In this document: positions 1 to 13,888 of the stretch, piece by piece
How positions within the stretch are numbered: position 1 is the first letter of the stretch
Layout: every line of letters starts with the position of its first letter
Virus record (IMG/VR): IMGVR_UViG_2684623171_000007
Strand: one strand, 5' to 3'
DNA length: 20,162 nucleotides
DNA from: a virus
Taxonomy: Duplodnaviria; Heunggongvirae; Uroviricota; Caudoviricetes
Program-made: the position numbers and the translations under genes
Notes under the pieces: model-generated
What the model was told of the DNA's origin: nothing
What the model saw: only the letters and a program-made list of their open reading frames with translations
Databases searched by the model: none

Positions 1-274
1 ATCTACAAGTGCCTTTTTCTGTCAGCGGTTCTCCTTTCCAGCCAATGAGAACCGTCAGGCGCGCGCCCCGTGGCGGTAGCTGCAACTGACCATCTGCATC
101 ATCCAGCGTGATGGTGAGCTGGTCCGCCTCAAATCCCCGGTTGTCGGTCAGTGACAGGCTCATCAGGCGCTCTGCCACGCCTGACAGCGTTTTACCCTCC
201 GCGAGAATATCAAAATCCGGCACTTTCACGTGGTCTGTGCCCTGACTGAGCAATTGCATGGTGGTGTCGGTCAT
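1..274 (-). CDS. D: tail protein D (P2 gpD-like), N-terminal part; gene continues beyond the window start
   Basis: Minus-strand ATG at ~272-274 preceded by a GGGAGGG Shine-Dalgarno. Translation MTDTTMQLLSQGTDHVKVPDFDILAEGKTLSGVAERLMSLSLTDNRGFEADQLTITLDDADGQLQLPPRGARLTVLIGWKGEPLTEKG contains the LTDNRGFEADQ / LDDADGQ block I recall from P2 gpD. Not in the ORF track because it runs off the window edge. Confidence 0.55.
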   Translation of the reverse strand, partial: MTDTTMQLLSQGTDHVKVPDFDILAEGKTLSGVAERLMSLSLTDNRGFEADQLTITLDDADGQLQLPPRGARLTVLIGWKGEPLTEKGTCR

Positions 275-1434
275 CTGTTCCCTCCCTGTGCGGCATGGTC
301 GCATGTGCGTGCGGAGGGGGTTACTGCTTTTTGTTGTCGCCGTGGCGGGAGAACGGCGCAGGGGTGAGATTACGCGAGTGGTGGGTGATGATTGTTGCCG
401 AATCATTTAACGGATACAAGGGGCTGAAGCTATGAGTGAAACTCGTTTTCATGGTGCCCGTGTTACGGAAAGTACCGACCTGGTAACAGCGATTAATGAT
501 GTTGATTCCAGTGTTATCGGTATCGTGGCAACGGCAGATGATGCGGACGCGGAGCTGTTCCCGCTGAACAAGCCCACACTGCTGACCCGCGTCAATGACG
601 TGCTGGGAAAATGCGGGACTACGGGGACGCTTTATCGTGCGCTTAAGGCTATCGCAGACCAGGTGAGCACAAAAGTGATCGTCGTTCGCGTGGCTGAACA
701 CAAAGAAGAAGGCGGTAAGACGCAGGATCAACTGGTTATCGGTGGTTCTGAATCTGACGGCAGCTATACGGGGATGTATGCGCTGCTTGTTGCAGAGCAG
801 GATGAAAGCATCGGATACCGTCCGCGTATTCTGGCCGCGCCGGAGCTGGACACGGAGGCGGTAACAAAATCCCTGTGCGTGATTGCGGGTAAACTGCGCG
901 CGTTTGTGTATGCCACATGTCATGGTTGTAACACGATGGCTGAGGCGATTACCTACCGCCAGAAATTCAACGAACGTGAGGTGATGCTCTTATGGCCTGA
1001 CTTCATCGCCTACAACCTGAAAAGTGGCAAAAACGAAACGTTCCCCGCGCCTGCTTATGCGTGCGGCCTTCGTGCGTACATTGACCATGAGCAGGGCTGG
1101 CACAAATCGCTGTCCAACGTTCCGGTTAAAAATGTGCTTGGGATGTCGAGGCATGTGTTCTGGTCGTTGCAGGCCGAAGACAGTGATGCCAACAGCCTCA
1201 ACAACAAAGAAATCACGACCATTATTCGTCGCAACGGGTTCCGCTTCTGGGGCAACCGCACACCGGAAACGAACGCCTACATCTTTGAGGTGTATACCCG
1301 AACCGCACAGGTGCTGGCTGATTCAATTGCGGAAGCGCAGTTTGAAACCATCGACAGTCCACTGACACCTGCGAACGTGAAGGATGTTATCAGTGCCATC
1401 AGGGCAAAACTGGATTCACTGGTTACTGCCGGGA

Positions 1435-1437
1435 AAC
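1435..1437. repeat. target-site duplication AAC, left copy
   Basis: AAC immediately outside the IS end at 1438; identical AAC at 2748-2750. A 3-bp duplication is typical for IS3-family elements. Confidence 0.75.
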
Positions 1438-1479
1438 TGAACCGCCCCGGGTTTCCTGGAGAGTGTTTTATCTGTGAAC

Positions 1480-2370
1480 TCAGGCTGCCAGATCATCGTT
1501 TCCGATGGAAGCATAATAAGCTTTTTCTGCTTCTGCCGGAGGAGTATGGCCCAGCCTTCCCAGCAATCGTCGATTGTTATACCAGTCCACCCACGTTAGT
1601 GTGGCCAGTTCCACTTCTGCACGGTTTTTCCAGCTCTTACGGTGTATTACCTCCGCTTTGTAAAGACCATTGATGCTCTCAGCCATCGCGTTGTCATACG
1701 AGTCGCCTGTACTCCCTGTTGATGCCAGTAATCCGGCTTCTTTTAGTCGCTCCGTATAGGCCAGTGACACATACTGAGAGCCTTTATCGCTGTGATGGAT
1801 GGTGCCAGACGGACGACGGGCCCACAACGCCTGCTCCAGCGCATCCAGCACGAATGTCGTTTCCATAGACGATGAGACCCGCCACCCCACGATGTATCCG
1901 GCAAACACATCAATGATAAACGCCACATAGACGAAGCCCTGCCATGTGCTGACGTAAGTAAAATCAGCCACCCACAGCTGGTCAGGTCGTTCTGCCACGA
2001 ACTGACGGTTTACGCGGTCGCCTGCGGCAACGGCTTTCCGGCTGATGGTCGTACGGACCTTTTTACCCCGGAGAACACCGGCAAGTCCCATAACCGCCAT
2101 GAGACGTGCCACTGTACATCTGGCCACCCTGATTCCTTCCCGTAACAACTGACGCCAGACTTTACGCACACCGTACACCTGATGATTTTCATCGTATACG
2201 CGCTGTATCTCTCTCTTCAGCCAGTCGTCGTGCTGCGCACGGGCACTGCGTTTATCCGGATGATGTCGCTGTTGCTGACAATGGTAATACGTTGACGGGG
2301 CAATATGCAGTTCGCTGCATACCGGTCCGACCCCGTACTGCTCACGCAGCTTATCCAGCAGTGGCATCAT
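1480..2370 (-). CDS. IS629-like transposase OrfB (catalytic part; normally expressed as an OrfAB fusion by -1 frameshifting in IS3-family elements)
   Basis: ORF track 296 aa in the -1 frame relative to OrfA, overlapping OrfA by 4 nt at an A6 run; contains the DDE-family motifs. Confidence 0.85.
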
Positions 2371-2693
2371 TTTTTCCAGAGGCGGTCGAACTCCGCCTTC
2401 GCAAAATAAGCGGAAGCCTGGCGAAGGATATCGTTACTGCGGCGCAGTTCACGATTTTCACGTTCCAGCTCTTTCAGACGCTGACGTTCAGCGCTGGTGA
2501 GCCCACCATCACCGCCCCCGGTATCCCGCTCATGCTGGCGAACCCAGACACGCAGAGTCTCCGGCGTACAGCCAATCTTTGGGGCAATGGAACAAATTGC
2601 CGCCCACTGTGAGTCATATTCATCCTGACTTTCCAGAACCATACGAATCGCCCGCTGACGGACTTCGGGGGAAAAACGAGTATTTTTAGTCAT
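2367..2693 (-). CDS. IS629-like transposase OrfA (HTH DNA-binding part)
   Basis: ORF track 108 aa: [98 protein letters not shown]. Stop overlaps the OrfB start in an A-rich run (GGAAAAAATGATG). Confidence 0.9.
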
Positions 2694-2747
2694 CCTGTTT
2701 ACCTCTTTCTCAGGGAGTTTAGTCTCCAGGATTTCCGGGGCGGTTCA

Positions 2748-2750
2748 AAC
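2748..2750. repeat. target-site duplication AAC, right copy
   Basis: AAC immediately outside the IS end at 2747; the FI reading frame resumes here. Confidence 0.75.
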
Positions 2751-2928
2751 TGATTGGCGCGGAGTGCTGGTATGACATCGAGGATAACAGCACCACGAAT
2801 TTACGTCAGGGGCGTGTGCGTATTCGCTACAAATATACGCCCGTTCCTCCGCTGGAAGACATGGAGCTTTACCAGTCGTTTACTGATGAATTCTTTGGTC
2901 CCGCATTTGCGGTGCTGGGAGGTGCCTG

Positions 2929-3441
2929 ATGGCTGTACCAAAACATCTTCGCTTTTTTACGCTGTTTGTGGATGGTGAAAACGAAGTGGGTAAGGTGACG
3001 TCCGTCACCCTGCCTAAACTGACGCGCAAAACCGACAGCTACCGGGGTGGTGGCATGATGGGTGCGGTAAGTATTGACCTCGGCCTGGACGACTCCGCGC
3101 TTGATGCGAGCTTTGTCATGGGGGGCGCAGTTCGTGAGCTGTTCCTGAAGTATGGCGGCACGATTGACGGCACGCTACTGCGTTTTGCGGGGGAATACTA
3201 CACCGATGATGAAAGCGACCTGTATGAAGTCGAAATGCGCGGACGTGTGACGGAAATTGATATGGGGGAAGCCAAACAGGGCGAAGCCACATCACACACT
3301 TACGCCATTAAAAACACCTACTACAAGCTGAGTGTTAACGATCGCCCGTTGTGGGAGATTGACCTGCTGAACTTCATTTACCGGAAGGACGGCAAGGACA
3401 TTGTGCCCGATCGCATCCGTTCCGCGCTTGGGCTTGGCTGA
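2929..3441 (+). CDS. FII: tail tube protein (P2 gpFII-like)
   Basis: ORF track 170 aa; ATG overlaps the FI stop (TGATG). Motifs TLPKLTRKTDSYRGGGMMGAVSIDLGLDD...LRFAGEYYTDDESD..EMRGR..EIDMGEAKQGE resemble P2 FII as I recall it. Position directly after the sheath gene. Confidence 0.85.
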   Translation: MAVPKHLRFFTLFVDGENEVGKVTSVTLPKLTRKTDSYRGGGMMGAVSIDLGLDDSALDASFVMGGAVRELFLKYGGTIDGTLLRFAGEYYTDDESDLYEVEMRGRVTEIDMGEAKQGEATSHTYAIKNTYYKLSVNDRPLWEIDLLNFIYRKDGKDIVPDRIRSALGLG

Positions 3442-3495: not shown

Positions 3496-3861
3496 ATGAA
3501 AGAGACGAAAAACATCGATACCGAAAACACGGTAGTTACTGACACTGTGAAAGAAACCAGTGAGCGTGGTGTAAAACTTACCCAACCAATTGAGCGAGGC
3601 GGCGAAAAAATCACGTATGTGGAGATCACCGGGGCTATTGAGCAGGCTGGATCTCTGCGAGATTTGTCGCTGTCTGATGTGCTGAATCTGAAAGCGGAAT
3701 CCATGTTTACGCTGCTGTCACGCGTGACATCACCGCGACTGGATGAAGTGACGATCAAAAAAATGGCATCCCGTGACTTTATTCAGTTATGTGTGGTTGC
3801 CGTAAATTTTTTGAGCGGTGCGGACTCTGGCGGGAAGAACGAACAGGCGACGGAAGCCTGA
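3496..3861 (+). CDS. E: tail assembly chaperone (P2 gpE-like), zero-frame product
   Basis: ORF track 121 aa; GGAG-type Shine-Dalgarno upstream (GAAAGGAGTTTCCTGATG). Position between the tube and tape-measure genes; contains a TTTTTTG slippery heptamer near its 3' end. Confidence 0.7.
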   Translation: MKETKNIDTENTVVTDTVKETSERGVKLTQPIERGGEKITYVEITGAIEQAGSLRDLSLSDVLNLKAESMFTLLSRVTSPRLDEVTIKKMASRDFIQLCVVAVNFLSGADSGGKNEQATEA

Positions 3862-4025
3862 TCACGGTTGTGTGCTTTGAGCACATAGAAGACTTTGTGG
3901 CAGATATTGCCGTTATTTTTAACTGGTCGCCCGCCGAAATCTTCATGATGACGCCCGGCGAAGTGGTTAGCTGGCGTGAGCGGGCGGCACTTCGCAGCGG
4001 GAATGCAGACAATGAAGACTCTTGA
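3496..4025 (+). CDS. E': tail assembly chaperone E+E' fusion, predicted -1 programmed frameshift product (3496..~3812 joined to the -1 frame ending 4025)
   Basis: Heptamer T_TTT_TTG at ~3807-3813 is in the correct phase in the E frame (codons AAT TTT TTG). The -1 frame (ORF track 3789..4025) is open from the slip site for ~70 codons and ends just inside the start of the tape-measure ORF. The same G/GT-type arrangement and T6G motif are established for the P2 E/E' genes. Confidence 0.6.
3807..3813 (+). other. candidate -1 ribosomal frameshift slippery site TTTTTTG
   Basis: Seen directly in the sequence, phased X_XXY_YYZ in the E reading frame. Confidence 0.6.
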
Positions 4026-6815
4026 TATCCGGGTCGCTTTCAGCGCCGTTGACAGGCTGACCCGACCTGCCGAAAACGCACGCCGCCTGATGGGGCAGTT
4101 TGGTGACTCCATCCAGCGAACGCAGGGGGCGATCAAAAATCTCGAGCGTCAGGCGCGATCATTTGAGCGCGCCCGCGACGCTGTCAGTAAAGCGGATGCT
4201 GGCATCGTGAAAGCACGACGCCAGCTTAACGCCCTTAATCAGTTACAACGCACGGGTACAGTGCTCAGCGAAAAACAACAAAAGCTGATGCAGCAGTTAA
4301 GCACCCGGCTTGAACGCCTGAATGAATCGCGCACACGGGAAATTCAGAAAATGAGGGAACTTGGCGGAGAGCTGAAACGCCACGGCATTTCCCTGACAGG
4401 CAGCGATAACACCATTCAGCAGGCCATCAGACGCACCGAACAATACAACAACCAGCTTGAACGCGAACGGCAGGCGCTTGCGCGTGTAACGCAGGCGCGT
4501 GAGCGGTATTCGCACGCGCAGGAAACCGCGGGAAAACTGAAAACAGGTGGTGCGCTGGCAATTGGTGCGGCAGCGGCGGGCGGCTATGCTGCCGGGCGTT
4601 TTTTGCAGCCTGCGATCGGGTTCGGCAAAGAGATGTCCCGCGTTCAGGCACTGACGCGAATCGACAAAAACAGCCCGCAGTTTAAGGCGCTGCGTGAGCA
4701 GGCGTTAAAACTTGCTGAAACACAGTTTACTGCGAGTGATGCCGCCAGTGGGCAGAGCTTTCTGGCAATGGCTGGTTTTACTCCGCAGGCCATTCAGGCC
4801 GCATTGCCCGGTGTTCTTAATATGGCGCTGGCAGGTGGCGTCGAACTCGGCGAGACGGCTGATATAGGCTCCAATATCCTCACACAGTTCAACCTGACAG
4901 CCGATCAAATGGACCGGGTGGGCGATACGCTGACAGCAGCATTTACCCGGACCAATACTGATTTACGCGCGCTGGGCGAAACCATGAAGTATACCGGTCC
5001 GGTTGCCGCAAAACTTGGTATCAGTCTTGAAGAAGCGGCGGCCATGGCCGGGATGCTTGCCAATAATGGTCTTCGCGGAAGCGATGCTGGCACGGCCATG
5101 CGCGCAAGTCTGTCCCGCCTTGCATCACCGCCAAAAGCTGCGGCTGATGCACTGAAAGAGCTGGGGGTGTCAGTTGCTGAGGCCAGAGGCAAAATGCGCC
5201 CGATGGAGGATGTGCTGCTTGATCTCTATAAGGCGACACAAAAATACGGACAGGTGGACCAGGTCTCCTTCTTCAAGGACATCGCCGGAGAAGAGGCGTT
5301 CGTTGGTTTGCAGACGCTTGTTGCGGCGGCTGGTTCAGGAGAGCTGCAAAAACTGACCAGAGAATTGCAGGGGGCAAGGGGAGAGGCCGATCGCGTCGCA
5401 AAAGTAATGGCTGATAATCTTGATGGGGACCTGAAAAATCTCGACAGCGCATGGGAAGGTCTTCGTATTCGCATCAGTGATCTGGTTGACGGTCCGCTGC
5501 GTTCTGTCACGCAGTGGCTCACGCGGGTGCTTGAAAAAATCACCTCGCTGGCGCAGGCCCATCCGGTACTGACGCGCCAGCTACTGATAGCAGGCGGTGC
5601 GTTGCTGGCAATGACTGCAACGATTGGCTCGTTGTCGCTGGTTATTGGGGTGCTTTACGGGAAGCTGGCCACCCTGCGTCTTGGTTTTGACATTCTTACC
5701 CGGTCAATGAATGTCGTCAGGGTGTTACCTGCGCTATGGGGAATGGTGACGGGTTCCGTTTCTTTACTGGGAGGCGTTATCGGGGCGTTGTTCAGTCCGG
5801 TTGGTCTTATCGTGGCTGCGCTTGCCGGAGCTGCCGTTCTTATCTGGAAATACTGGGATCCTATCAGGGCTTTCTTTGCCGGGGTGTTCAGCGGGATTAT
5901 GGAAAGGCTGACCCCGTTGCGCGACACCTTTGAACGGTTTGGCCCTGTTTTTGACGTAATCGGAAGCGGTTCAGCCAGGTGTTTAACTGGTTTAAATCGC
6001 TGCTGTCACCGATGGAGTCCAGCAAGGAAACGCTGGATAAATGTACCAGTGCTGGCGAGGTATTCGGTAACGTTCTTGGTGGTGCGTTACAGCTTGTTCT
6101 GACGCCTGCAAAAATGTTGCTGGATACGCTGGCGTGGATACTTGAAAAACTCGGTGTGCTTCCGGATGAAGCGGAAAGGGCGCGCAAGAAAATCGAAGAC
6201 GCACAACGTGCGGCCATTCTTCAGGACAAGGTTGCTCTGTTTCAGGGAGACATTGCGAAAATCAATCCGCCGAAGTCTGCGGGAAATAGCAATGGCACCG
6301 GAGATGATAAACCCAAAGACAACAAACCTCTCACAGACAGCAATACCGGCACGCTACGCAGACTCAGCAAAATTGCTGATAACACAGGTAAGCTGGTTGA
6401 TGAGACAAAAAAACGCATTGGCCCCGGCGATATTGTCTTTAAGAACCTGCCCCGCGCACTTGCTGTTCGTGGGGAGTGGCAGGAGCGGAAGATTGCGCAG
6501 GTCAGTAAGCCTGCCCCCGCAATTAATATCACACCCGTGGTCCCGGCTCCGCTGCCTCCGGCGCTGGTCCCTGTTGTTGCGGCCAGCTCCCGCCCGGTGG
6601 TGGAGGCCATACGATCGCCAGTGGCATCAGTTCCTGCAACTTCCCGTAACCGGGAGCCTGTTGCCTCCGGATTTGGCGGTGAAATTCATGTTCATCTGCA
6701 TAACGTTGTTACGCAGAATCCCCGCGAACTGGCGAAACTGGTCGGCGAAATGGTCAGGGCAGAAATGGAACGGCGCGCCCGTGCCAGGCGTGGCAGTTTT
6801 TACGATAAAGATTGA
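3976..6815 (+). pseudogene. T: tail tape measure protein (P2 gpT-like), split into two frames by an apparent 1-bp frameshift near 5966-5980
   Basis: ORF track 3976..6102 (708 aa, GTG at 3976; alternative in-frame ATGs at ~4003 and ~4012) is coiled-coil-rich with a long hydrophobic stretch, as expected for a tape measure. ORF 5979..6815 (278 aa) continues in the -1 frame with no gap. Around GGAAGCGGTTCAGCCAGGTG, one extra T (GGTTTCAGC) would give a continuous ..FDVIGSGFSQVFNWFKSLL.. reading. The C-terminal frame ends 13 nt before the U gene. Confidence 0.7.
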
Positions 6816-6827
6816 GGAGTCATGGCC

Positions 6828-7316
6828 ATGATGATGATCTACGGCATGTTTGTTTTTGAGCTGCGCACGTTGCCGCATCAGCAGTTACAGCAAAACAAAA
6901 GCTGGCGACATGTGAAAAATGAACGCGTTAACCGTTCAGCAAGCTGGCAGTATATCGGTGCAGGTGATGATCGCATCGTTCTTTCTGGTGTTCTTTATCC
7001 TGAGATTACTGGTGGCGAAGTGTCGCTGTCGTTGTTGACCACGCAGGCATATACAGGACGTCCTTGGCCTTTGATTGATGGCGTCGGGCAGATTTACGGC
7101 ATGTATGTCCTGACCGGAACGAATACGACCCGCTCCGAGTTTGATCGCTACGGTAAGGCGAAAAAGATAGAATTTTCACTGACTCTTGAACGCTGTGATG
7201 AGGATTTGCGGGAGCGCCTGCAATCCTCATCGTTCAGCGATATGCTGTCCGGCTTCAAAGATAAGGTGACATCATCCCTTAATAGCGCGGCCAGCTCAGT
7301 TAAGGGGCTGCTCTGA
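6828..7316 (+). CDS. U: tail protein (P2 gpU-like)
   Basis: ORF track 6822..7316. GAGGAG Shine-Dalgarno at ~6814-6819 is best spaced for the ATG at 6828 (MMMIYGMFVFELRTLP...). Motifs YPEITGG and WPLIDGVGQIYGMYVLTG resemble P2 gpU as I recall it. Confidence 0.8.
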   Translation: MMMIYGMFVFELRTLPHQQLQQNKSWRHVKNERVNRSASWQYIGAGDDRIVLSGVLYPEITGGEVSLSLLTTQAYTGRPWPLIDGVGQIYGMYVLTGTNTTRSEFDRYGKAKKIEFSLTLERCDEDLRERLQSSSFSDMLSGFKDKVTSSLNSAASSVKGLL

Positions 7317-7439
7317 TTTAACGTATGTCGCCAATTTCCTGATGAAGGTGACTGGCGACTTGCTGTTGTATGTCCTTCTCAGAAAATTGTTTTTGAATAA
7401 CAAATAACAGGATTTTATAATCTCTTAACCTTATAACAT

Positions 7440-8045
7440 GTGTGGTCTGAAATAATAATTAAGGAGATTATCGTGCTATCTTACTTAATGGCAATTCACT
7501 TTGTTTTATTTGGAAACTCTACTAATTTAAAAAACTTCTGGAAACATGAAGTAATTCGGCGGAAACGTATGGATATCTGGAGGCTTTTAAGAGAGAAAAA
7601 ACAGCGTAACCGGAATTTCCTTTTCTGGTGGCGGTTGGCTAACGAAATGTATATTAATGGTAATAAATTACATAAGAAAGCAGCCAAAAAGTTAAACAGT
7701 AAAATAATTAACAAGTTTGGTTGTGAAATAGGATTGGGCGCAAATATTGGAAAAGGGTTGACAATTCCCCATCATGCTGGAATTGTTGTTCATTTTGCTG
7801 TTGATGCGGGTGAAAATCTGGTATTACGACAGAATACTACCATTGGACAGATAGATGGTGATATGCCTAGTTCAAGAGTAAAAATTGGTAGTAACGTTGA
7901 TATCGGAGCTAATTGTTGCATCATTGGATTATCACGTAAAATTGGGGATAATGTAAAAATAGGTGCAATGTCTTTTATAAATAAAGATATACCATCAAAC
8001 TGCACATATATAACTAAAAAGAGTGGTGTTGTATTGTATAAATAG
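7440..8045 (+). CDS. hexapeptide-repeat (left-handed beta-helix) acyltransferase, serine/sugar O-acetyltransferase-like; low-GC cargo gene
   Basis: ORF track 201 aa. Likely true start is GTG at ~7473 after AAGGAG (MLSYLMAIHF...). Tandem hexapeptide [LIV]-G-x-x-x-x pattern (GCEIGLGANIGKGLTIPHHAGIVVHFAVDAGENLVLRQNTTIGQIDG...VKIGSNVDIGANCCIIG..KIGDNVKIGAMSFI) typical of the CysE/WcaB/LacA acetyltransferase family. The segment 7320-8090 is visibly AT-rich compared with the flanking tail genes. Confidence 0.7.
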   Translation: MWSEIIIKEIIVLSYLMAIHFVLFGNSTNLKNFWKHEVIRRKRMDIWRLLREKKQRNRNFLFWWRLANEMYINGNKLHKKAAKKLNSKIINKFGCEIGLGANIGKGLTIPHHAGIVVHFAVDAGENLVLRQNTTIGQIDGDMPSSRVKIGSNVDIGANCCIIGLSRKIGDNVKIGAMSFINKDIPSNCTYITKKSGVVLYK

Positions 8046-8621: not shown

Positions 8622-8675
8622 TGAACCGCCCCGGGAATCCTGGAGACTAAACTCCCTGAGAAAGAGGTAAACAGG

Positions 8676-9002
8676 ATGACTAAAAATACACGTTTTTCCC
8701 CCGAGGTCCGTCAACGGGCAGTCCGTATGGTTCTGGAAAGTCAGGGCGAATATGACTCACAATGGGCGGCAATTCGTTCCATTGCCCCAAAGATTGGCTG
8801 TACACCAGAGACTCTGCGTGTGTGGGTTCGTCAGCATGAGCGGGATACCGGGGGCGGTGATGGTGGACTCACCACCGCTGAACGTCAGCGTCTGAAAGAG
8901 CTGGAACGTGAAAATCGTGAACTGCGCCGCAGTAACGATATCCTTCGCCAGGCTTCCGCTTATTTTGCGAAGGCGGAGTTCGACCGCCTCTGGAAAAAAT
9001 AA
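8676..9002 (+). CDS. IS629-like transposase OrfA (copy 2)
   Basis: ORF track 108 aa; differs from copy 1 OrfA at 4 residues (V16, G24, R34, T67 versus I, D, C, S). Confidence 0.85.
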
Positions 9003-9678
9003 TGCCGCTGCTGGATAAGCTGCGTGAGCAGTACGGGGTCGGACCGGTATGCAGTGAACTGCATATTGCCCCGTCAACGGATTACCACTGTCAGCAACAG
9101 CGACATCATCCGGATAAACGCAGTGCCCGTGCGCAGCGCGATGACTGGCTGAAGAGAGAGATACAGCGCGTATACGATGAAAATCATCAGGTGTACGGTG
9201 TGCGTAAAGTCTGGCGCCAGTTGTTACGCGAAGGTATCAGGGTGGCCAGATGTACAGTGGCGCGCCTCATGGCGGTTATGGGACTTGCCGGTGTTCTCCG
9301 GGGTAAAAAGGTCCGTACTACCGTCAGCCGGAAAGCCGTTTCCGCAGGCGACCGCGTAAACCGTCAGTTCGTGGCAGAACGTCCTGACCAGCTGTGGGTG
9401 GCTGATTTTACTTACGTCAGCACATGGCAGGGCTTCGTCTATGTGGCGTTCATCATTGATGTGTTTTCCGGATGTATCGTGGGGTGGCGAGTCTCATCGT
9501 CTATGGAAACGACATTCGTGCTGGATGCACTGGAGCAGGCGTTGTGGGCCCGTCGGCCGTCCGGCACAGTCCATCACAGTGATAAAGGTTCTCAGTATGT
9601 ATCACTGGCCTATACGGAGCGACTAAAAGAAGCAAAACTGCTGGCATCAACAGGGAGTACAGGTGACTCGTATGACAA
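9002..9678 (+). pseudogene. IS629-like transposase OrfB, C-terminally truncated (copy 2)
   Basis: ORF track 9002..9691 (229 aa); the last residues (..DSYDNVFY*) are read from non-IS sequence, so the conserved C-terminal ~70 aa of OrfB are missing. Confidence 0.8.
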
Positions 9679-9710
9679 TGTATTTTATTAGTTCACATAC
9701 AATTATCAGA

Positions 9711-10025
9711 TTATTCTGGGAATAAGGTCTGAATATTCTTTTTTATTTTATAAAAATTGCATTCAACTCCGCTAGGCTGATTAGCCTGGTATGTTTCCTT
9801 GATGCTAACGGTATTGAAGGGGAGGTTGTCCTCTGGCCATTCGGCCATCCAGTAGGCAAATGCTGGGTTGCGCTTTATGAGTGCTAGCCCAGCCAGAAAG
9901 GCCGCGCGTTGCGCGCGGCTGCGTTCGGAGGCTGGCAGGCTATCGAGGTAATTGCACGCCTCCTGTTCACTCTTGACGGCGGCGGGCTTCAGATAGAAAC
10001 TTATCCGTCTGGTTGGTGTCGTCAT
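9711..10025 (-). CDS. parR: ParR/StbB-like centromere-binding partition protein (ribbon-helix-helix)
   Basis: ORF track 104 aa; starts 5 bp after the parM-like stop. N-terminal half (RRISFYLKP...LDSLPASERSRAQRAAFLAGLAL) resembles ParR of plasmid R1 as I recall it (..TIAFKLNP..LDSIPQGERSRLNRAALTAGLAL..). The C-terminal third is divergent and encoded by AT-rich DNA next to the IS junction. Confidence 0.6.
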   Translation of the reverse strand: MTTPTRRISFYLKPAAVKSEQEACNYLDSLPASERSRAQRAAFLAGLALIKRNPAFAYWMAEWPEDNLPFNTVSIKETYQANQPSGVECNFYKIKKNIQTLFPE

Positions 10026-10029
10026 TGGT

Positions 10030-10989
10030 TTACTCCTTGTTCATTGCGTACAACCCATTAACCAGAGCAAACTGTGGCACCCCGTCCGCGATGAAAGTCG
10101 CATTAACTCCGCAGGCTTCGCGGATAGCGGTTGCCACAATCTCCGCCCCGCCACCGACAACCATCACCCGCCCGTAACCCGAAAAAACCGCCAGCGCGCG
10201 GATCACGCGTTGTTTCAGTGTTTCTTCCTTTTCACGAATAACCGCCATCAGGCTGGCGTAATGCGCGTCATTGTGGATGTGCTGGCGCAGCCAGGCTTCA
10301 TCATGGCGATGTTCGATAATGGTATTGGCGATGTGGTGACTGGTGCGCATACCGTTAGTGGCCATCACCGACAGTACGGCATCGGCCATCAGAGAAACGC
10401 CTACGTGTGGATCGCAAAACACCTGGCTGATACCTGCCAGTTGCCCCTGAACCTTTGCCACATCCAGCGTGGTTCCGCCCAAATCCACAATCAGCAGGGA
10501 TTCAAACGGACTCATGTCAGCCAGTGCCTTAAAGCCAGCAGGAATGGATTCAGGCATAACCCGTACGTTACGGATAGTGAATGCTTCGCCGTTCTGGTAC
10601 TCCACCGGGCGCATGACGTTCGCTTTTTTGCGGTTGATGTTGGCCATGTCCGGCTGTGCGTTTGTATCGAAATACTCGCTCAGTGGCAGGGTGACAACCA
10701 CATCCACTTCCTGTGGTGTGATGCCTGATTTGACCAGCGCGTGATGAATGGCAATTACATTCACATCGCTGTACTGGTATTGCGTGTCGGTCGTCTGGAC
10801 AAAGCGATCGCTGACCGGATCAAAACCATAGCGCACGCCATCAAGCATGTAGTTCGCGGGCTGCGTGCCACCGAATGGCGCAGACCATTCCGACTTGAAG
10901 CTGTTCGGGCTGATGGCGTTGCGGCGTTCGCCGTTCTCAGTCCATGCCAGCTTGATGTTGGTGGAGCCGTCGTCGATACAAATTTTCAT
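10030..10989 (-). CDS. parM: ParM/StbA-like actin-type partition ATPase
   Basis: ORF track 319 aa with AAGGA Shine-Dalgarno. Family-defining blocks IDDGSTNIKL, ISPNSF, YQYSDVNVIAIHHAL, MPESIPAG, LIVDLGGTTLD, GVSL, FSGY..VMVVGGGAE and LVNGLY align with R1 ParM/StbA as I recall it. Confidence 0.85.
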   Translation of the reverse strand: MKICIDDGSTNIKLAWTENGERRNAISPNSFKSEWSAPFGGTQPANYMLDGVRYGFDPVSDRFVQTTDTQYQYSDVNVIAIHHALVKSGITPQEVDVVVTLPLSEYFDTNAQPDMANINRKKANVMRPVEYQNGEAFTIRNVRVMPESIPAGFKALADMSPFESLLIVDLGGTTLDVAKVQGQLAGISQVFCDPHVGVSLMADAVLSVMATNGMRTSHHIANTIIEHRHDEAWLRQHIHNDAHYASLMAVIREKEETLKQRVIRALAVFSGYGRVMVVGGGAEIVATAIREACGVNATFIADGVPQFALVNGLYAMNKE

Positions 10990-11023
10990 GTCGCTTTTCC
11001 TTATGTTGATTAATTAATCGGTT

Positions 11024-11132
11024 ACAGGATTTTTAAATCCCGCTTTTGCCTGTTTTGTGCGCGCTTCATATATCGCGGCGCGTTTTTTGCTCATTTACGG
11101 GATTTGTGAGTCCCGTTTCTGTCTGTTTTTTG
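11024..11132. repeat. two ~36-bp direct repeats, each with internal dyad symmetry, upstream of parM (candidate parC-like centromere/operator or tandem hairpins)
   Basis: Copy 1 ~11024-11059 ACAGGATTTTTAAATCCCGCTTTTGCCTGTTTTGTG; copy 2 ~11097-11132 ACGGGATTTGTGAGTCCCGTTTCTGTCTGTTTTTTG (about 27 of 36 positions identical). Cores GGATTT..AAATCC and ACGGGA..TCCCGT are inverted repeats followed by T-rich tracts. Copy 2 lies inside the last ~20 codons of gene A. Confidence 0.4.
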
Positions 11133-13888
11133 TTTCCACTGGTCAGGCCACCCCGCAGCAGGTCTGCTTTGCGGCTGGCGCGTTCAGTGGTTTCACTGAT
11201 TCTCTGTGCGTGCTCTGCGTCGCGGATGGCGCGCAGCATGTCAGAAAGCACGGTAACGGGTGTTTTCATGGTGTTCTGGTCCTGCTGAAGTGTGGATGCC
11301 AGGCGTGCGGCGGCTTCAGGGTCTGATGCCCCCAGCTGTGCCAGATAGCTGGCGACCGGGTTATGGCGGATCTCCGTGCTGCTTACGCCATGATTACGGC
11401 TCAGGCGCTGCCAGAGCTGCGTGATTCGGCTGTCCGGGCGGGTATCCGGTTTGCGTACAATTTCAAATCCCTGCGGTGCAATGATGCTGCCGTCAACGTA
11501 CAGACTGCCGCCCCGTAACAGGTGCTGCATCTGTTGTTCACCGATATGCAGGCCGAGAGATTCAGCAGACTCCCGCCATTCTTTAGCGAGTAATTCGTGG
11601 TTATCAGGCAAAGGCCGCTGCTGTTTGCGGCTCTGTGTCCAGCTCTGCATTTCATCACTGCTGTTTTTTGCCTGTTTGTCACGAAGCGAACGCATCAGCG
11701 CCCGGCGTTCGTGCCGTTTCAGTGAGCGCATCCATTCGTTCACGTCAACGCCGTCAGGAAGCTGCGGCCACGGTGCTGGCCGTTCTTCCGGCTGTTCTGT
11801 CCCGTTGTTGTCCGTTTCCTGTACACGGGGACAGTTATTGCCACGAGTCCAAGGGGCGGCAGGGCCGCCCTGAAGGTCAAAACCATTTTCGCGGGCGCTG
11901 TCTTCTACTCCCGGTTTACGTCTTACCAGCTTCCAGTTATCCGGGTGCGTGCACACACGGGAGGATTCCCCGATGAGTGGTGACCAGATCCCGTAAATCT
12001 GTACGCTCTGTTCGCCGTAATCGTTCAGCTCATCTGCGAGGTCGTAGGCGGTGCGAATCAGGTAGTCCTTGCGTGGAACAAGTACGCCTCCCTGTTTCTC
12101 AATGTAGGTGGTAAAACATCCGGCATCAGCGGCAGCAAGAACCGCATCCATTGCGTCATCCTTCAGCCGTTGCGGGCCTTCCGGGTTGCGTGCCATCTGG
12201 CTGGCAAGGCGACGCAGTTCACGCCACACCTGACGGGAGGGGATGCCAAAGAACTGGAACTGGCGGACCCGGTGAAGGCGCGCCCAGCCAATGGCGCGTT
12301 CCACGCTCTCGGTCATTGATTTTCCGGTTTCGTGGTCAACGCGTGGTTTGCCTGTTTTCGGGTCGATGCCATCCACGGCGCGGCTGTCCAGGTTTTTTCC
12401 GATGTAGGTGGCGATGTAGCTGGTTGGCGTGCCTTTTGAGCCGTCGACATACTCCGCCTTAAAGCGCGGAGTAATATCATCGCCCAGCTCGTGACGATCT
12501 TCCTGAATGGCAATATCGCGGGTGTGGGACACAATGGTGTCGATTTCTTCCGGATGAGCAAAGACCATCATATGCCAGTGCACGGTGCCGTCATGGTGAG
12601 GCTCCACCGTGCGGATGCCATACCAGCGCAGGCCGTCGCGGTTCAGTTTCTTGCGGACCGCCGCAAAAAACGTGTTAACCAGGTAATCGCTGGAGTCGCG
12701 CATGGTGGCCCCGTTCCATTTGGGATTCGGATGACCGTTCTCTGTTGTAGCGTGGTATTTTGACGGGCAGGTGACAGTCAGAAACACCGCTTTGTCGCCA
12801 CGGGCTTCGGCCAGAAGTTCCAGCCCCTTCATGGTGGCCATCATTTCTGCCTTACGGTGAACCGGGTTACTTACTCCCGCGTAATACACTGTCTCGAGAT
12901 CAATCGTGAACCCGTCTTCGTTTTCCAGCATGAAACTTTTCAGGAAATCGCGTGTTTTCTCGCGCTGTGCGCGAAACTCGCTTAACGCGTCCTGGCTCAG
13001 ATAGGGCGATGTTTTTCTGGAAACCAGACAGGCGGCGCGGAGTTGTTCTTCTCTCCACTCGCAACGTAACAGCCACAGTTTGCGTTTCCACCATTCCGCA
13101 CAGGTCAGGCGAAGGATTGCGCCCGGCAGCAGCTCCGTGTCCGGTTCGTTCCTCCGGTCTTTGTCTGTTGTCAGTGCGTCATAATGTGGAGGCATGGCGT
13201 GCAGGTGTAACGCCATGCGGGCCAGCATCTGATACGCCTTCAGCGTTACATCCATGGTCAGTTCGCCATCGGTCGCGCCAAAGCCATCGCAGAGTTTTTC
13301 GAAGGTGCTGCTGAACATCGCCGCCGTCATGGTGGCCAGCGTCTGTATCTGGTGTTTGTTGAGCTGCGGCAGGTAAAGCAAATCGTCCAGGCGTTCGCGT
13401 CCGGCAAGGGAGCGATAACCCTGTGTCAGCCAGCGGTGATCGGTGCGCTCCAGACGTTCGAATATTTTGCGCAGGTTTCCGCGCGCGTAGCGTTCAGCCT
13501 GCCAGCTCTTTTTGCCTTTCTGACGATCGGCTTCCTGTTTTTTGCGCAGGAAGGAGAGGTGGCGAATAAGCGGATCGCGCAGATAGGACGGCAGCAGGCG
13601 CAGCGAGGCCATGGCTTCATCCACCGCACCGCGTGCCTGTTTTCTGGCGTCTCCTGCCAGTGTGATGGTTTTGTCCTGTTTTTCCTGTGCGTCCAGGCTT
13701 TTATTAATCAGGTTGCCCAGCGGCGTTGCGGAGAACGCCGCATCAGCCATTTCCTGGCGGCGCTCGTTCTCTACCCGGTAGGCATCCAGCCAGGAGGAAA
13801 GCGCGGATTCAGGAGCGGGGATCCCCGTTCCTTCACGCCCCACTGCGTGGCGCGGTTGTTGCCAGTCCCTGATGTACTCTGCCGTCAT
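11066..13888 (-). CDS. A: replication initiation endonuclease (P2 gpA-like, HUH rolling-circle initiator)
   Basis: ORF track 940 aa. Contains an HUH-type motif (DGTVHWHMMVF) and a downstream tyrosine motif (TPTSYIATYIGKNLDS), the arrangement established for P2 A-family initiators. Sits at the distal end of the early operon as in P2. It is longer than P2 A as I recall it (~760 aa), so the real start or C-terminal tail may differ. Confidence 0.8.
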   Translation of the reverse strand: MTAEYIRDWQQPRHAVGREGTGIPAPESALSSWLDAYRVENERRQEMADAAFSATPLGNLINKSLDAQEKQDKTITLAGDARKQARGAVDEAMASLRLLPSYLRDPLIRHLSFLRKKQEADRQKGKKSWQAERYARGNLRKIFERLERTDHRWLTQGYRSLAGRERLDDLLYLPQLNKHQIQTLATMTAAMFSSTFEKLCDGFGATDGELTMDVTLKAYQMLARMALHLHAMPPHYDALTTDKDRRNEPDTELLPGAILRLTCAEWWKRKLWLLRCEWREEQLRAACLVSRKTSPYLSQDALSEFRAQREKTRDFLKSFMLENEDGFTIDLETVYYAGVSNPVHRKAEMMATMKGLELLAEARGDKAVFLTVTCPSKYHATTENGHPNPKWNGATMRDSSDYLVNTFFAAVRKKLNRDGLRWYGIRTVEPHHDGTVHWHMMVFAHPEEIDTIVSHTRDIAIQEDRHELGDDITPRFKAEYVDGSKGTPTSYIATYIGKNLDSRAVDGIDPKTGKPRVDHETGKSMTESVERAIGWARLHRVRQFQFFGIPSRQVWRELRRLASQMARNPEGPQRLKDDAMDAVLAAADAGCFTTYIEKQGGVLVPRKDYLIRTAYDLADELNDYGEQSVQIYGIWSPLIGESSRVCTHPDNWKLVRRKPGVEDSARENGFDLQGGPAAPWTRGNNCPRVQETDNNGTEQPEERPAPWPQLPDGVDVNEWMRSLKRHERRALMRSLRDKQAKNSSDEMQSWTQSRKQQRPLPDNHELLAKEWRESAESLGLHIGEQQMQHLLRGGSLYVDGSIIAPQGFEIVRKPDTRPDSRITQLWQRLSRNHGVSSTEIRHNPVASYLAQLGASDPEAAARLASTLQQDQNTMKTPVTVLSDMLRAIRDAEHAQRISETTERASRKADLLRGGLTSGNKKQTETGLTNPVNEQKTRRDI

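Follow-up and report, generated by a model that had tools for sequence, protein, structure and literature searches.

We analysed a stretch of DNA of 20,162 nucleotides (hereafter the window) in which a phage tail tape-measure gene is split between two reading frames. Comparison with related prophages suggests, at a probability of about 93%, that the split is a genuine and fixed inactivating mutation of prophage Sp13, and that it belongs to the neutral decay of a tail operon that was already disabled when the mutation arose. What the lesion is, which state preceded it, where it occurs and when it arose relative to other events are shown here by comparison of the window with its relatives. That this gene is a frameshifted pseudogene is correct but ordinary, since public annotation already records it as such (ECs_2640; PGAP), and the lesion is by itself of little import, being one more in a prophage already called defective. 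The mutant allele, GGTTC, is nevertheless useful as a clean marker, since it sets typical O157:H7 apart from the LSU-61, sorbitol-fermenting and glucuronidase-positive lineages. When combined with a shared IS30 insertion in gene D and a GCT deletion, it allows the decay of one prophage to be set in order along the stepwise O157:H7 lineage.

The locus and its two reading frames

A 3-kb query around the gene matched many E. coli O157:H7 chromosomes at 100% identity and complete P2/186-like phages (Peduoviridae) at 89-96% identity. In these phages one 'tail tape measure protein' gene spans the region. The FRIK944 record is 100% identical (window coordinates are its locus coordinates minus 5101) and there PGAP labels the gene 'phage tail tape measure protein, frameshifted'; the region adjoins uvrC-pgsA-tRNA Gly/Cys/Leu. 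The Sakai genome has the region under the label 'prophage Sp13, P2-like phage' and lists the gene as the pseudogene ECs_2640 (Sp13/CP-933T, NC_002695.2 2606612..2609415), which lies at the same locus and has the same length of 2804 nt as the gene in the window. The window and Sakai Sp13 are 99.96% identical, colinear and free of gaps apart from one 1.3-kb IS at 1441-2746, an IS1203/IS629 carried in the sheath gene of the window but not of Sakai. The 61 nt surrounding the lesion are identical in the two, and there are a few SNPs elsewhere. These matches identify the window as prophage Sp13, a P2-like remnant beside tRNA-Leu (leuZ) of typical E. coli O157:H7.

The two open reading frames described in an earlier note on this DNA are present in the ORF listing. 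They lie on the + strand at 3976..6102 (708 aa) and 5979..6815 (278 aa), overlap by 124 nt and differ in frame by one base (3976 is 1 and 5979 is 0 modulo 3). The break between them is a deterministic property of the sequence and involves no statistics. The 5' frame closes at the TGA at 6100-6102, and the 3' frame is open directly after the TGA at 5952-5954 and on to 6815. Any event joining the two frames must therefore fall in 5955..6099, within the + strand zone where both are open on translation (5955..6102). The string that the earlier note quoted, GGAAGCGGTTCAGCC, is found at 5962-5976. One base added there produces a single ORF at 4012..6815, of 2805 nt (934 codons plus the stop), in good agreement with the roughly 930 codons expected by the note from one added T. 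This joined ORF starts at the annotated ATG at 4012 and has no internal stop, whether a T is added or the ancestral state is restored. The tail tape-measure gene, equivalent to P2 gpT, is hence a frameshifted pseudogene at 4012..6815 on the + strand (PGAP, Sakai annotation, PF10145), with its 5' part (frame 1) closed by the stop at 6102 and its 3' part (frame 0) extending to 6815. The predicted truncated product has 696 aa from ATG 4012. It is tape-measure-like up to ...FDVIGSG, and its last 44 residues, encoded out of frame from 5970 to 6102 (SARCLTGLNRCC...SLF*), are unrelated. This aberrant tail contains SARCLTGLNRCCHRW.

The identity of the gene as a tape measure, which had been proposed from the letters alone, is upheld by family searches. 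The 5' product matches PF10145 (PhageMin_Tail) at aa 228-426 with 184.3 bits (3e-54, for a curated cut-off of 33.2 bits), and the intact orthologue matches TIGR01760 (tape_meas_TP901) at aa 190-537 with 289.3 bits (4e-86, for a cut-off of 28.8 bits). The 3' ORF alone matched no Pfam family. The position of the gene is also that of a tape measure, after a frameshifting chaperone pair and before distal tail genes. The tail assembly chaperone pair (P2 E and E+E' equivalents; PGAP 'tail protein' and 'GpE family phage tail protein') occupies 3496..4025 on the + strand, where E is at 3496..3861 and the E' frame, which ends at 4025, extends past the tape-measure start at 4012. Its programmed -1 slippery site, the canonical T_TTT_TTG (3807-3813), is intact. 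Directly downstream of the pseudogene comes an intact tail protein gene at the position of P2 gpU (6828..7316, + strand, PGAP). P2 gpT and the tape-measure genes of other Peduoviridae (Escherichia phage 500465-2, a Gemsvirus; phage P88) have the same place in the FI-FII-E-E'-T-U-D operon. They resemble the window gene, within the range of DNA identity given above, in having a PF10145/TIGR01760 core followed by a hydrophobic segment. Yet, these phage genes are intact and reside in complete, presumably functional genomes, whereas the frame in the window is interrupted at 5968-5970 and would give 696 instead of 934-935 aa. A working tape measure is expected to be one long open frame, the length of which sets that of the tail, and we thus class the gene as a pseudogene member of the tape-measure family, not a functional one.

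A serine O-acetyltransferase gene (7473..8045) follows the tail gene and precedes the tail-fibre assembly gene. Since the intact prophage of LSU61 has it as well, it resembles cargo (a moron gene).

The lesion, its ancestral state and its distribution

The closest intact genes are those of O157:H7 LSU61 (WP_000853406.1) and 493/89 (WP_000853407.1), which belong to the same prophage, integrated at the same site next to tRNA-Leu, with the same flanking E, E', U and acetyltransferase genes. The LSU61 prophage is complete, with tail, baseplate, fibre, lysis and head genes. Both tape-measure genes are more than 99.7% identical to that of the window but have an uninterrupted frame (2808 nt, 935 aa). 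We considered O55:H7 CB9615 as a direct ancestor of the locus and rejected it, because its prophage is at another site (next to ihfA) and is a paralogous relative. The proper comparator is LSU61, not CB9615. Over the whole tape-measure gene the window and LSU61 differ at 8 alignment columns only: a deletion of 3 nt (GCT) near 4715, substitutions at 5074, 5181 and 6173, and the two columns of the lesion. In length, the window gene differs from those of LSU61 and 493/89 only by the in-frame GCT and by one base at 5968. The GCT deletion (4712..4717, + strand, alignment to LSU61 and 493/89) lies in an alanine-rich stretch, and the codon is kept in LSU61, 493/89, phage 500465-2 and CB9615. The deletion is common to the window, PV15-279 and F3113, which makes it older than the frameshift.

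The lesion itself is at 5968..5970 on the + strand. In the alignments the window has GGT (in GCGGTTCAGC) where all intact relatives have GGGA (in GCGGGATCAGC), so that the site reads GGTTC in the window and GGGATC in LSU61, 493/89, PV15-279, F3113, phage 500465-2 and CB9615. Relative to these, a G is absent at 5968 and a T stands for an A at 5970. The alignments thus indicate that the lost base is a G accompanied by an adjacent A-to-T change, or else that GA was replaced by T. The break had been placed at 5950-5990, and this was correct. It had also been ascribed to the deletion of a single base from a short T run, and this is refuted by the orthologues. The earlier note had itself asked for a comparison with orthologous tape-measure genes, and these proved to be intact single genes with one extra base. 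To judge from their common GGGATC, the ancestor had no T run, and the TT is a product of the mutation. Neither is the addition of a T a return to the original state: it would give Phe, and the ancestral residue is Ile (GCGGGATCAGC encodes Gly-Ile-Ser). An apparent homopolymer indel can be typed only against orthologues, and here the 'T run' was itself made by the mutation. The change at 5968-5973 also abolished a GATC site (Dam methylation / MutH) that is kept in all intact relatives.

A 61-nt query centred on the site had matches in 1,230 E. coli records, 264 of which, all complete and Sakai among them, carry the exact allele; those of the 264 with a serotype label are without exception O157. 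Among the non-identical records, all of the 47 sampled span one base more than the query. We also searched 5,426 complete E. coli genomes for the forms GGGTTC and GGATC, the intermediates expected if the two changes occurred one after the other, and found no exact match to either.

This bears on whether the lesion arose in one step or two. Compared with its closest sister, PV15-279, the window shows three differences in ~2.3 kb, two of which are only two bases apart, and by our own arithmetic such proximity would occur by chance in about 0.5% of cases. Given this proximity and the lack of intermediate alleles among the complete genomes, the likeliest origin is in probabilistic terms a single complex event, e.g. 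the replacement of GA by T. Two independent mutations, i.e. the loss of a G from GGG by slippage plus a separate A-to-T substitution, are a rather unlikely origin, even if the ancestral run of three G makes slippage plausible and even if they could not be told apart from a single event had both fallen on one branch. In the search for a templated origin, no 8-12-mer spanning the new GG|T junction was found within ±1 kb on either strand. We also considered template switching by way of an 11-nt quasi-palindrome partner, GGCTGACCCCG (~5904-5914, located by eye), and rejected it because the mutation reduces the complementarity.

Slippage, error and gene splitting as alternatives

The mutation brought a heptamer of the slippery form X_XXY_YYZ, T_TTA_AAT at 5991..5997 (+ strand, from sequence and codon phase), into phase with the shifted 5' frame. 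Both frames are open around the heptamer, and ribosomes slipping by -1 on it would return to the 3' frame. If a small fraction of them did so, a recoding site born by accident from the mutation would partly rescue the frameshift, and some full-length tape-measure protein would come from the 'pseudogene' after all, altered at nine residues (ISQVFNWFK to SARCLTGLN). The analogy is with the programmed frameshift of tail chaperones (P2 E/E+E', lambda G/GT), with which this site shares the -1 shift, the tail operon and a heptamer of slippery form. In fact, a genuine programmed -1 site lies 2.2 kb upstream in the same operon. Yet, that site is in the chaperone gene and is part of a conserved design, while the break in the tape measure is mutational, belongs to one clone and has no stimulatory structure. 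The RNA downstream (5985-6110, 126 nt) is not unusually stable compared with shuffled sequences (z = -0.87, with 36 of 200 shuffles folding as well). The usual spacer between a slippery site and its structure is 5-9 nt, and no hairpin or pseudoknot was found at that distance; the nearest clean hairpin begins about 19 nt after the heptamer. Without a stimulator, moreover, heptamers ending in AAU are poor slippery sites in E. coli. All intact relatives read the same bases as TGG TTT AAA TCG, with the heptamer out of phase, and it therefore cannot have been selected for a role in slippage. Nor is the pair of frames conserved, since only the 264 identical records have it, and all the others sampled carry the extra base. 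Finally, a restored tape-measure protein would have no tail to build, as breaks or deletions affect the sheath gene (in this strain) and the D, baseplate, fibre, head and lysis genes (PMC2669165). Rescue by slippage is thus very improbable. We judge T_TTA_AAT to be a chance by-product of the mutation, and nothing we found supports programmed frameshifting.

The earlier note had left open whether the break was a real inactivating mutation or an error of sequencing or assembly at a homopolymer, in which case the true sequence would be one base longer and the gene intact. Among assembly errors, indels of one base are the most frequent, and there is a short run at the site. Yet, the exact allele comes from many laboratories in its 264 complete records, and it stands in the Sakai reference, whose curators kept the gene as a pseudogene. 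Furthermore, the context is just GG followed by TT, with no long homopolymer, and the lesion includes a base substitution, which errors of the indel type do not make. The form with the extra T, GGTTTC, had no exact match in the 5,426 complete E. coli genomes. A bias of shared reference-guided polishing across the 264 complete genomes and Sakai is very unlikely. Hence, the agreement among many independent assemblies, the accompanying substitution and the lack of a long run all point to a real, clone-wide mutation, and we give next to no credence to an error. The lesion is reproducible in independent sequences, close orthologues are intact, and a small indel explains the difference, as expected of a pseudogene.

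An authentic two-gene arrangement, in which the tape-measure function would be shared by two separately translated proteins, is hardly conceivable in spite of the long ORFs (708 and 278 codons, the second with a GTG at 5979), since every relative outside the typical O157:H7 clone is one base longer here (47 sampled), the annotated orthologues that we fetched, including the syntenic ones of LSU61 and 493/89, have a single gene of ~2808 nt and not the two-gene layout that the earlier note had envisaged, the 3' ORF alone is without a Pfam match, and the arrangement has roughly the age of a single clone.

Decay of the prophage and the order of events

The real inactivating mutation in the tape-measure gene is one among several lesions of Sp13. 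Tail gene D (late control D) is reduced to a 5' fragment at 8..274 (- strand, PGAP), cut by an IS30 just left of the window. The junction (7386-7389 in LSU61 coordinates) is common by BLAST to 493/89, PV15-279 and the window. The tail sheath gene is interrupted by IS1203/IS629 at 1441..2746 (- strand, PGAP and alignments), leaving pieces at 432..1439 and 2747..2929. This insertion is present in FRIK944 and absent from Sakai, and is hence specific to a sub-lineage. Further signs of decay had been mentioned before, and they are amply borne out by these two insertions and by deletions at an IS3-family fragment, so that lesions affect gene D and the sheath, baseplate, fibre, lysis and head genes. 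Sp13/CP-933T is indeed already known as a defective prophage without most morphogenetic genes, and its transcription rises when Sakai is induced with mitomycin C (PMC2669165).

Some details of this erosion may be added. On the far side of the IS30, typical O157:H7 has lost hok, ogr, a YecA-family gene and most of D (LSU61 ~3977-7300). The tail-fibre assembly gene is truncated at the IS3-family (IS629) fragment (window 8622-9691), and beyond it the baseplate, fibre, macro-domain, lysis, head and terminase genes of LSU61 are all missing. Plasmid-type partition genes (ParM/StbA and a partner, 9711..10989, - strand) adjoin a replication endonuclease gene (11066..13888), which fits the reported excision and replication of Sp13.

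The relatives allow these events to be ordered. In 493/89, a sorbitol-fermenting O157, the tape-measure gene is intact and the IS30 junction is present. PV15-279, a glucuronidase-positive O157:H7, and F3113 have lost the region from the sheath gene to the 5' part of T by an IS1203-associated deletion, and both keep GGGATC. LSU-61 is regarded as intermediate between the O55:H7 and O157 branches (PMC7175801), and the glucuronidase-positive cluster is consistent with the stepwise model (PMC6256406). The most probable sequence of events would start with the insertion of IS30 into gene D in an ancestor common to typical O157:H7 and to the sorbitol-fermenting and glucuronidase-positive lineages, which makes it, on this comparison, the oldest lesion of the tail operon. 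The loss of the GCT codon in the tape-measure gene would come next, followed by the change from GGGATC to GGTTC, only on the branch of typical O157:H7 (glucuronidase-negative and non-sorbitol-fermenting). The insertion of IS1203 into the sheath gene, in the sub-lineage of the window, would be the last step. After the third of these, translation would leave the tape-measure frame after Gly-Ser-Gly (codon 652) and run through the aberrant residues to the stop at 6102, and the C-terminal ~283 residues of the protein would be lost.

The IS30 in gene D is shared with lineages in which the tape-measure site is intact, and the tail operon would therefore have been disabled before the frameshift arose. 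Gene D is essential in P2. If we assume that it is essential here too, the frameshift struck an operon already out of function, would not have been selected against, and was probably neutral.

Decay has also proceeded outside the typical O157:H7 branch. The tape-measure remnant of F3113 (10564..12876) has an additional internal stop, from a C-to-T change at the equivalent of window position 6480, and F3113 and a second glucuronidase-positive strain have an internal stop in the holin gene (22172..22495). These lesions amount to independent decay in the glucuronidase-positive lineage. Finally, even in the prophages of LSU61 and CB9615, which look intact, PGAP annotates gene D (6536..7389 and 6522..7375, respectively) as a CDS of 801 nt and a small partial ORF, and not as a gene of ~1.1 kb, which could be a quirk of annotation or an older lesion.
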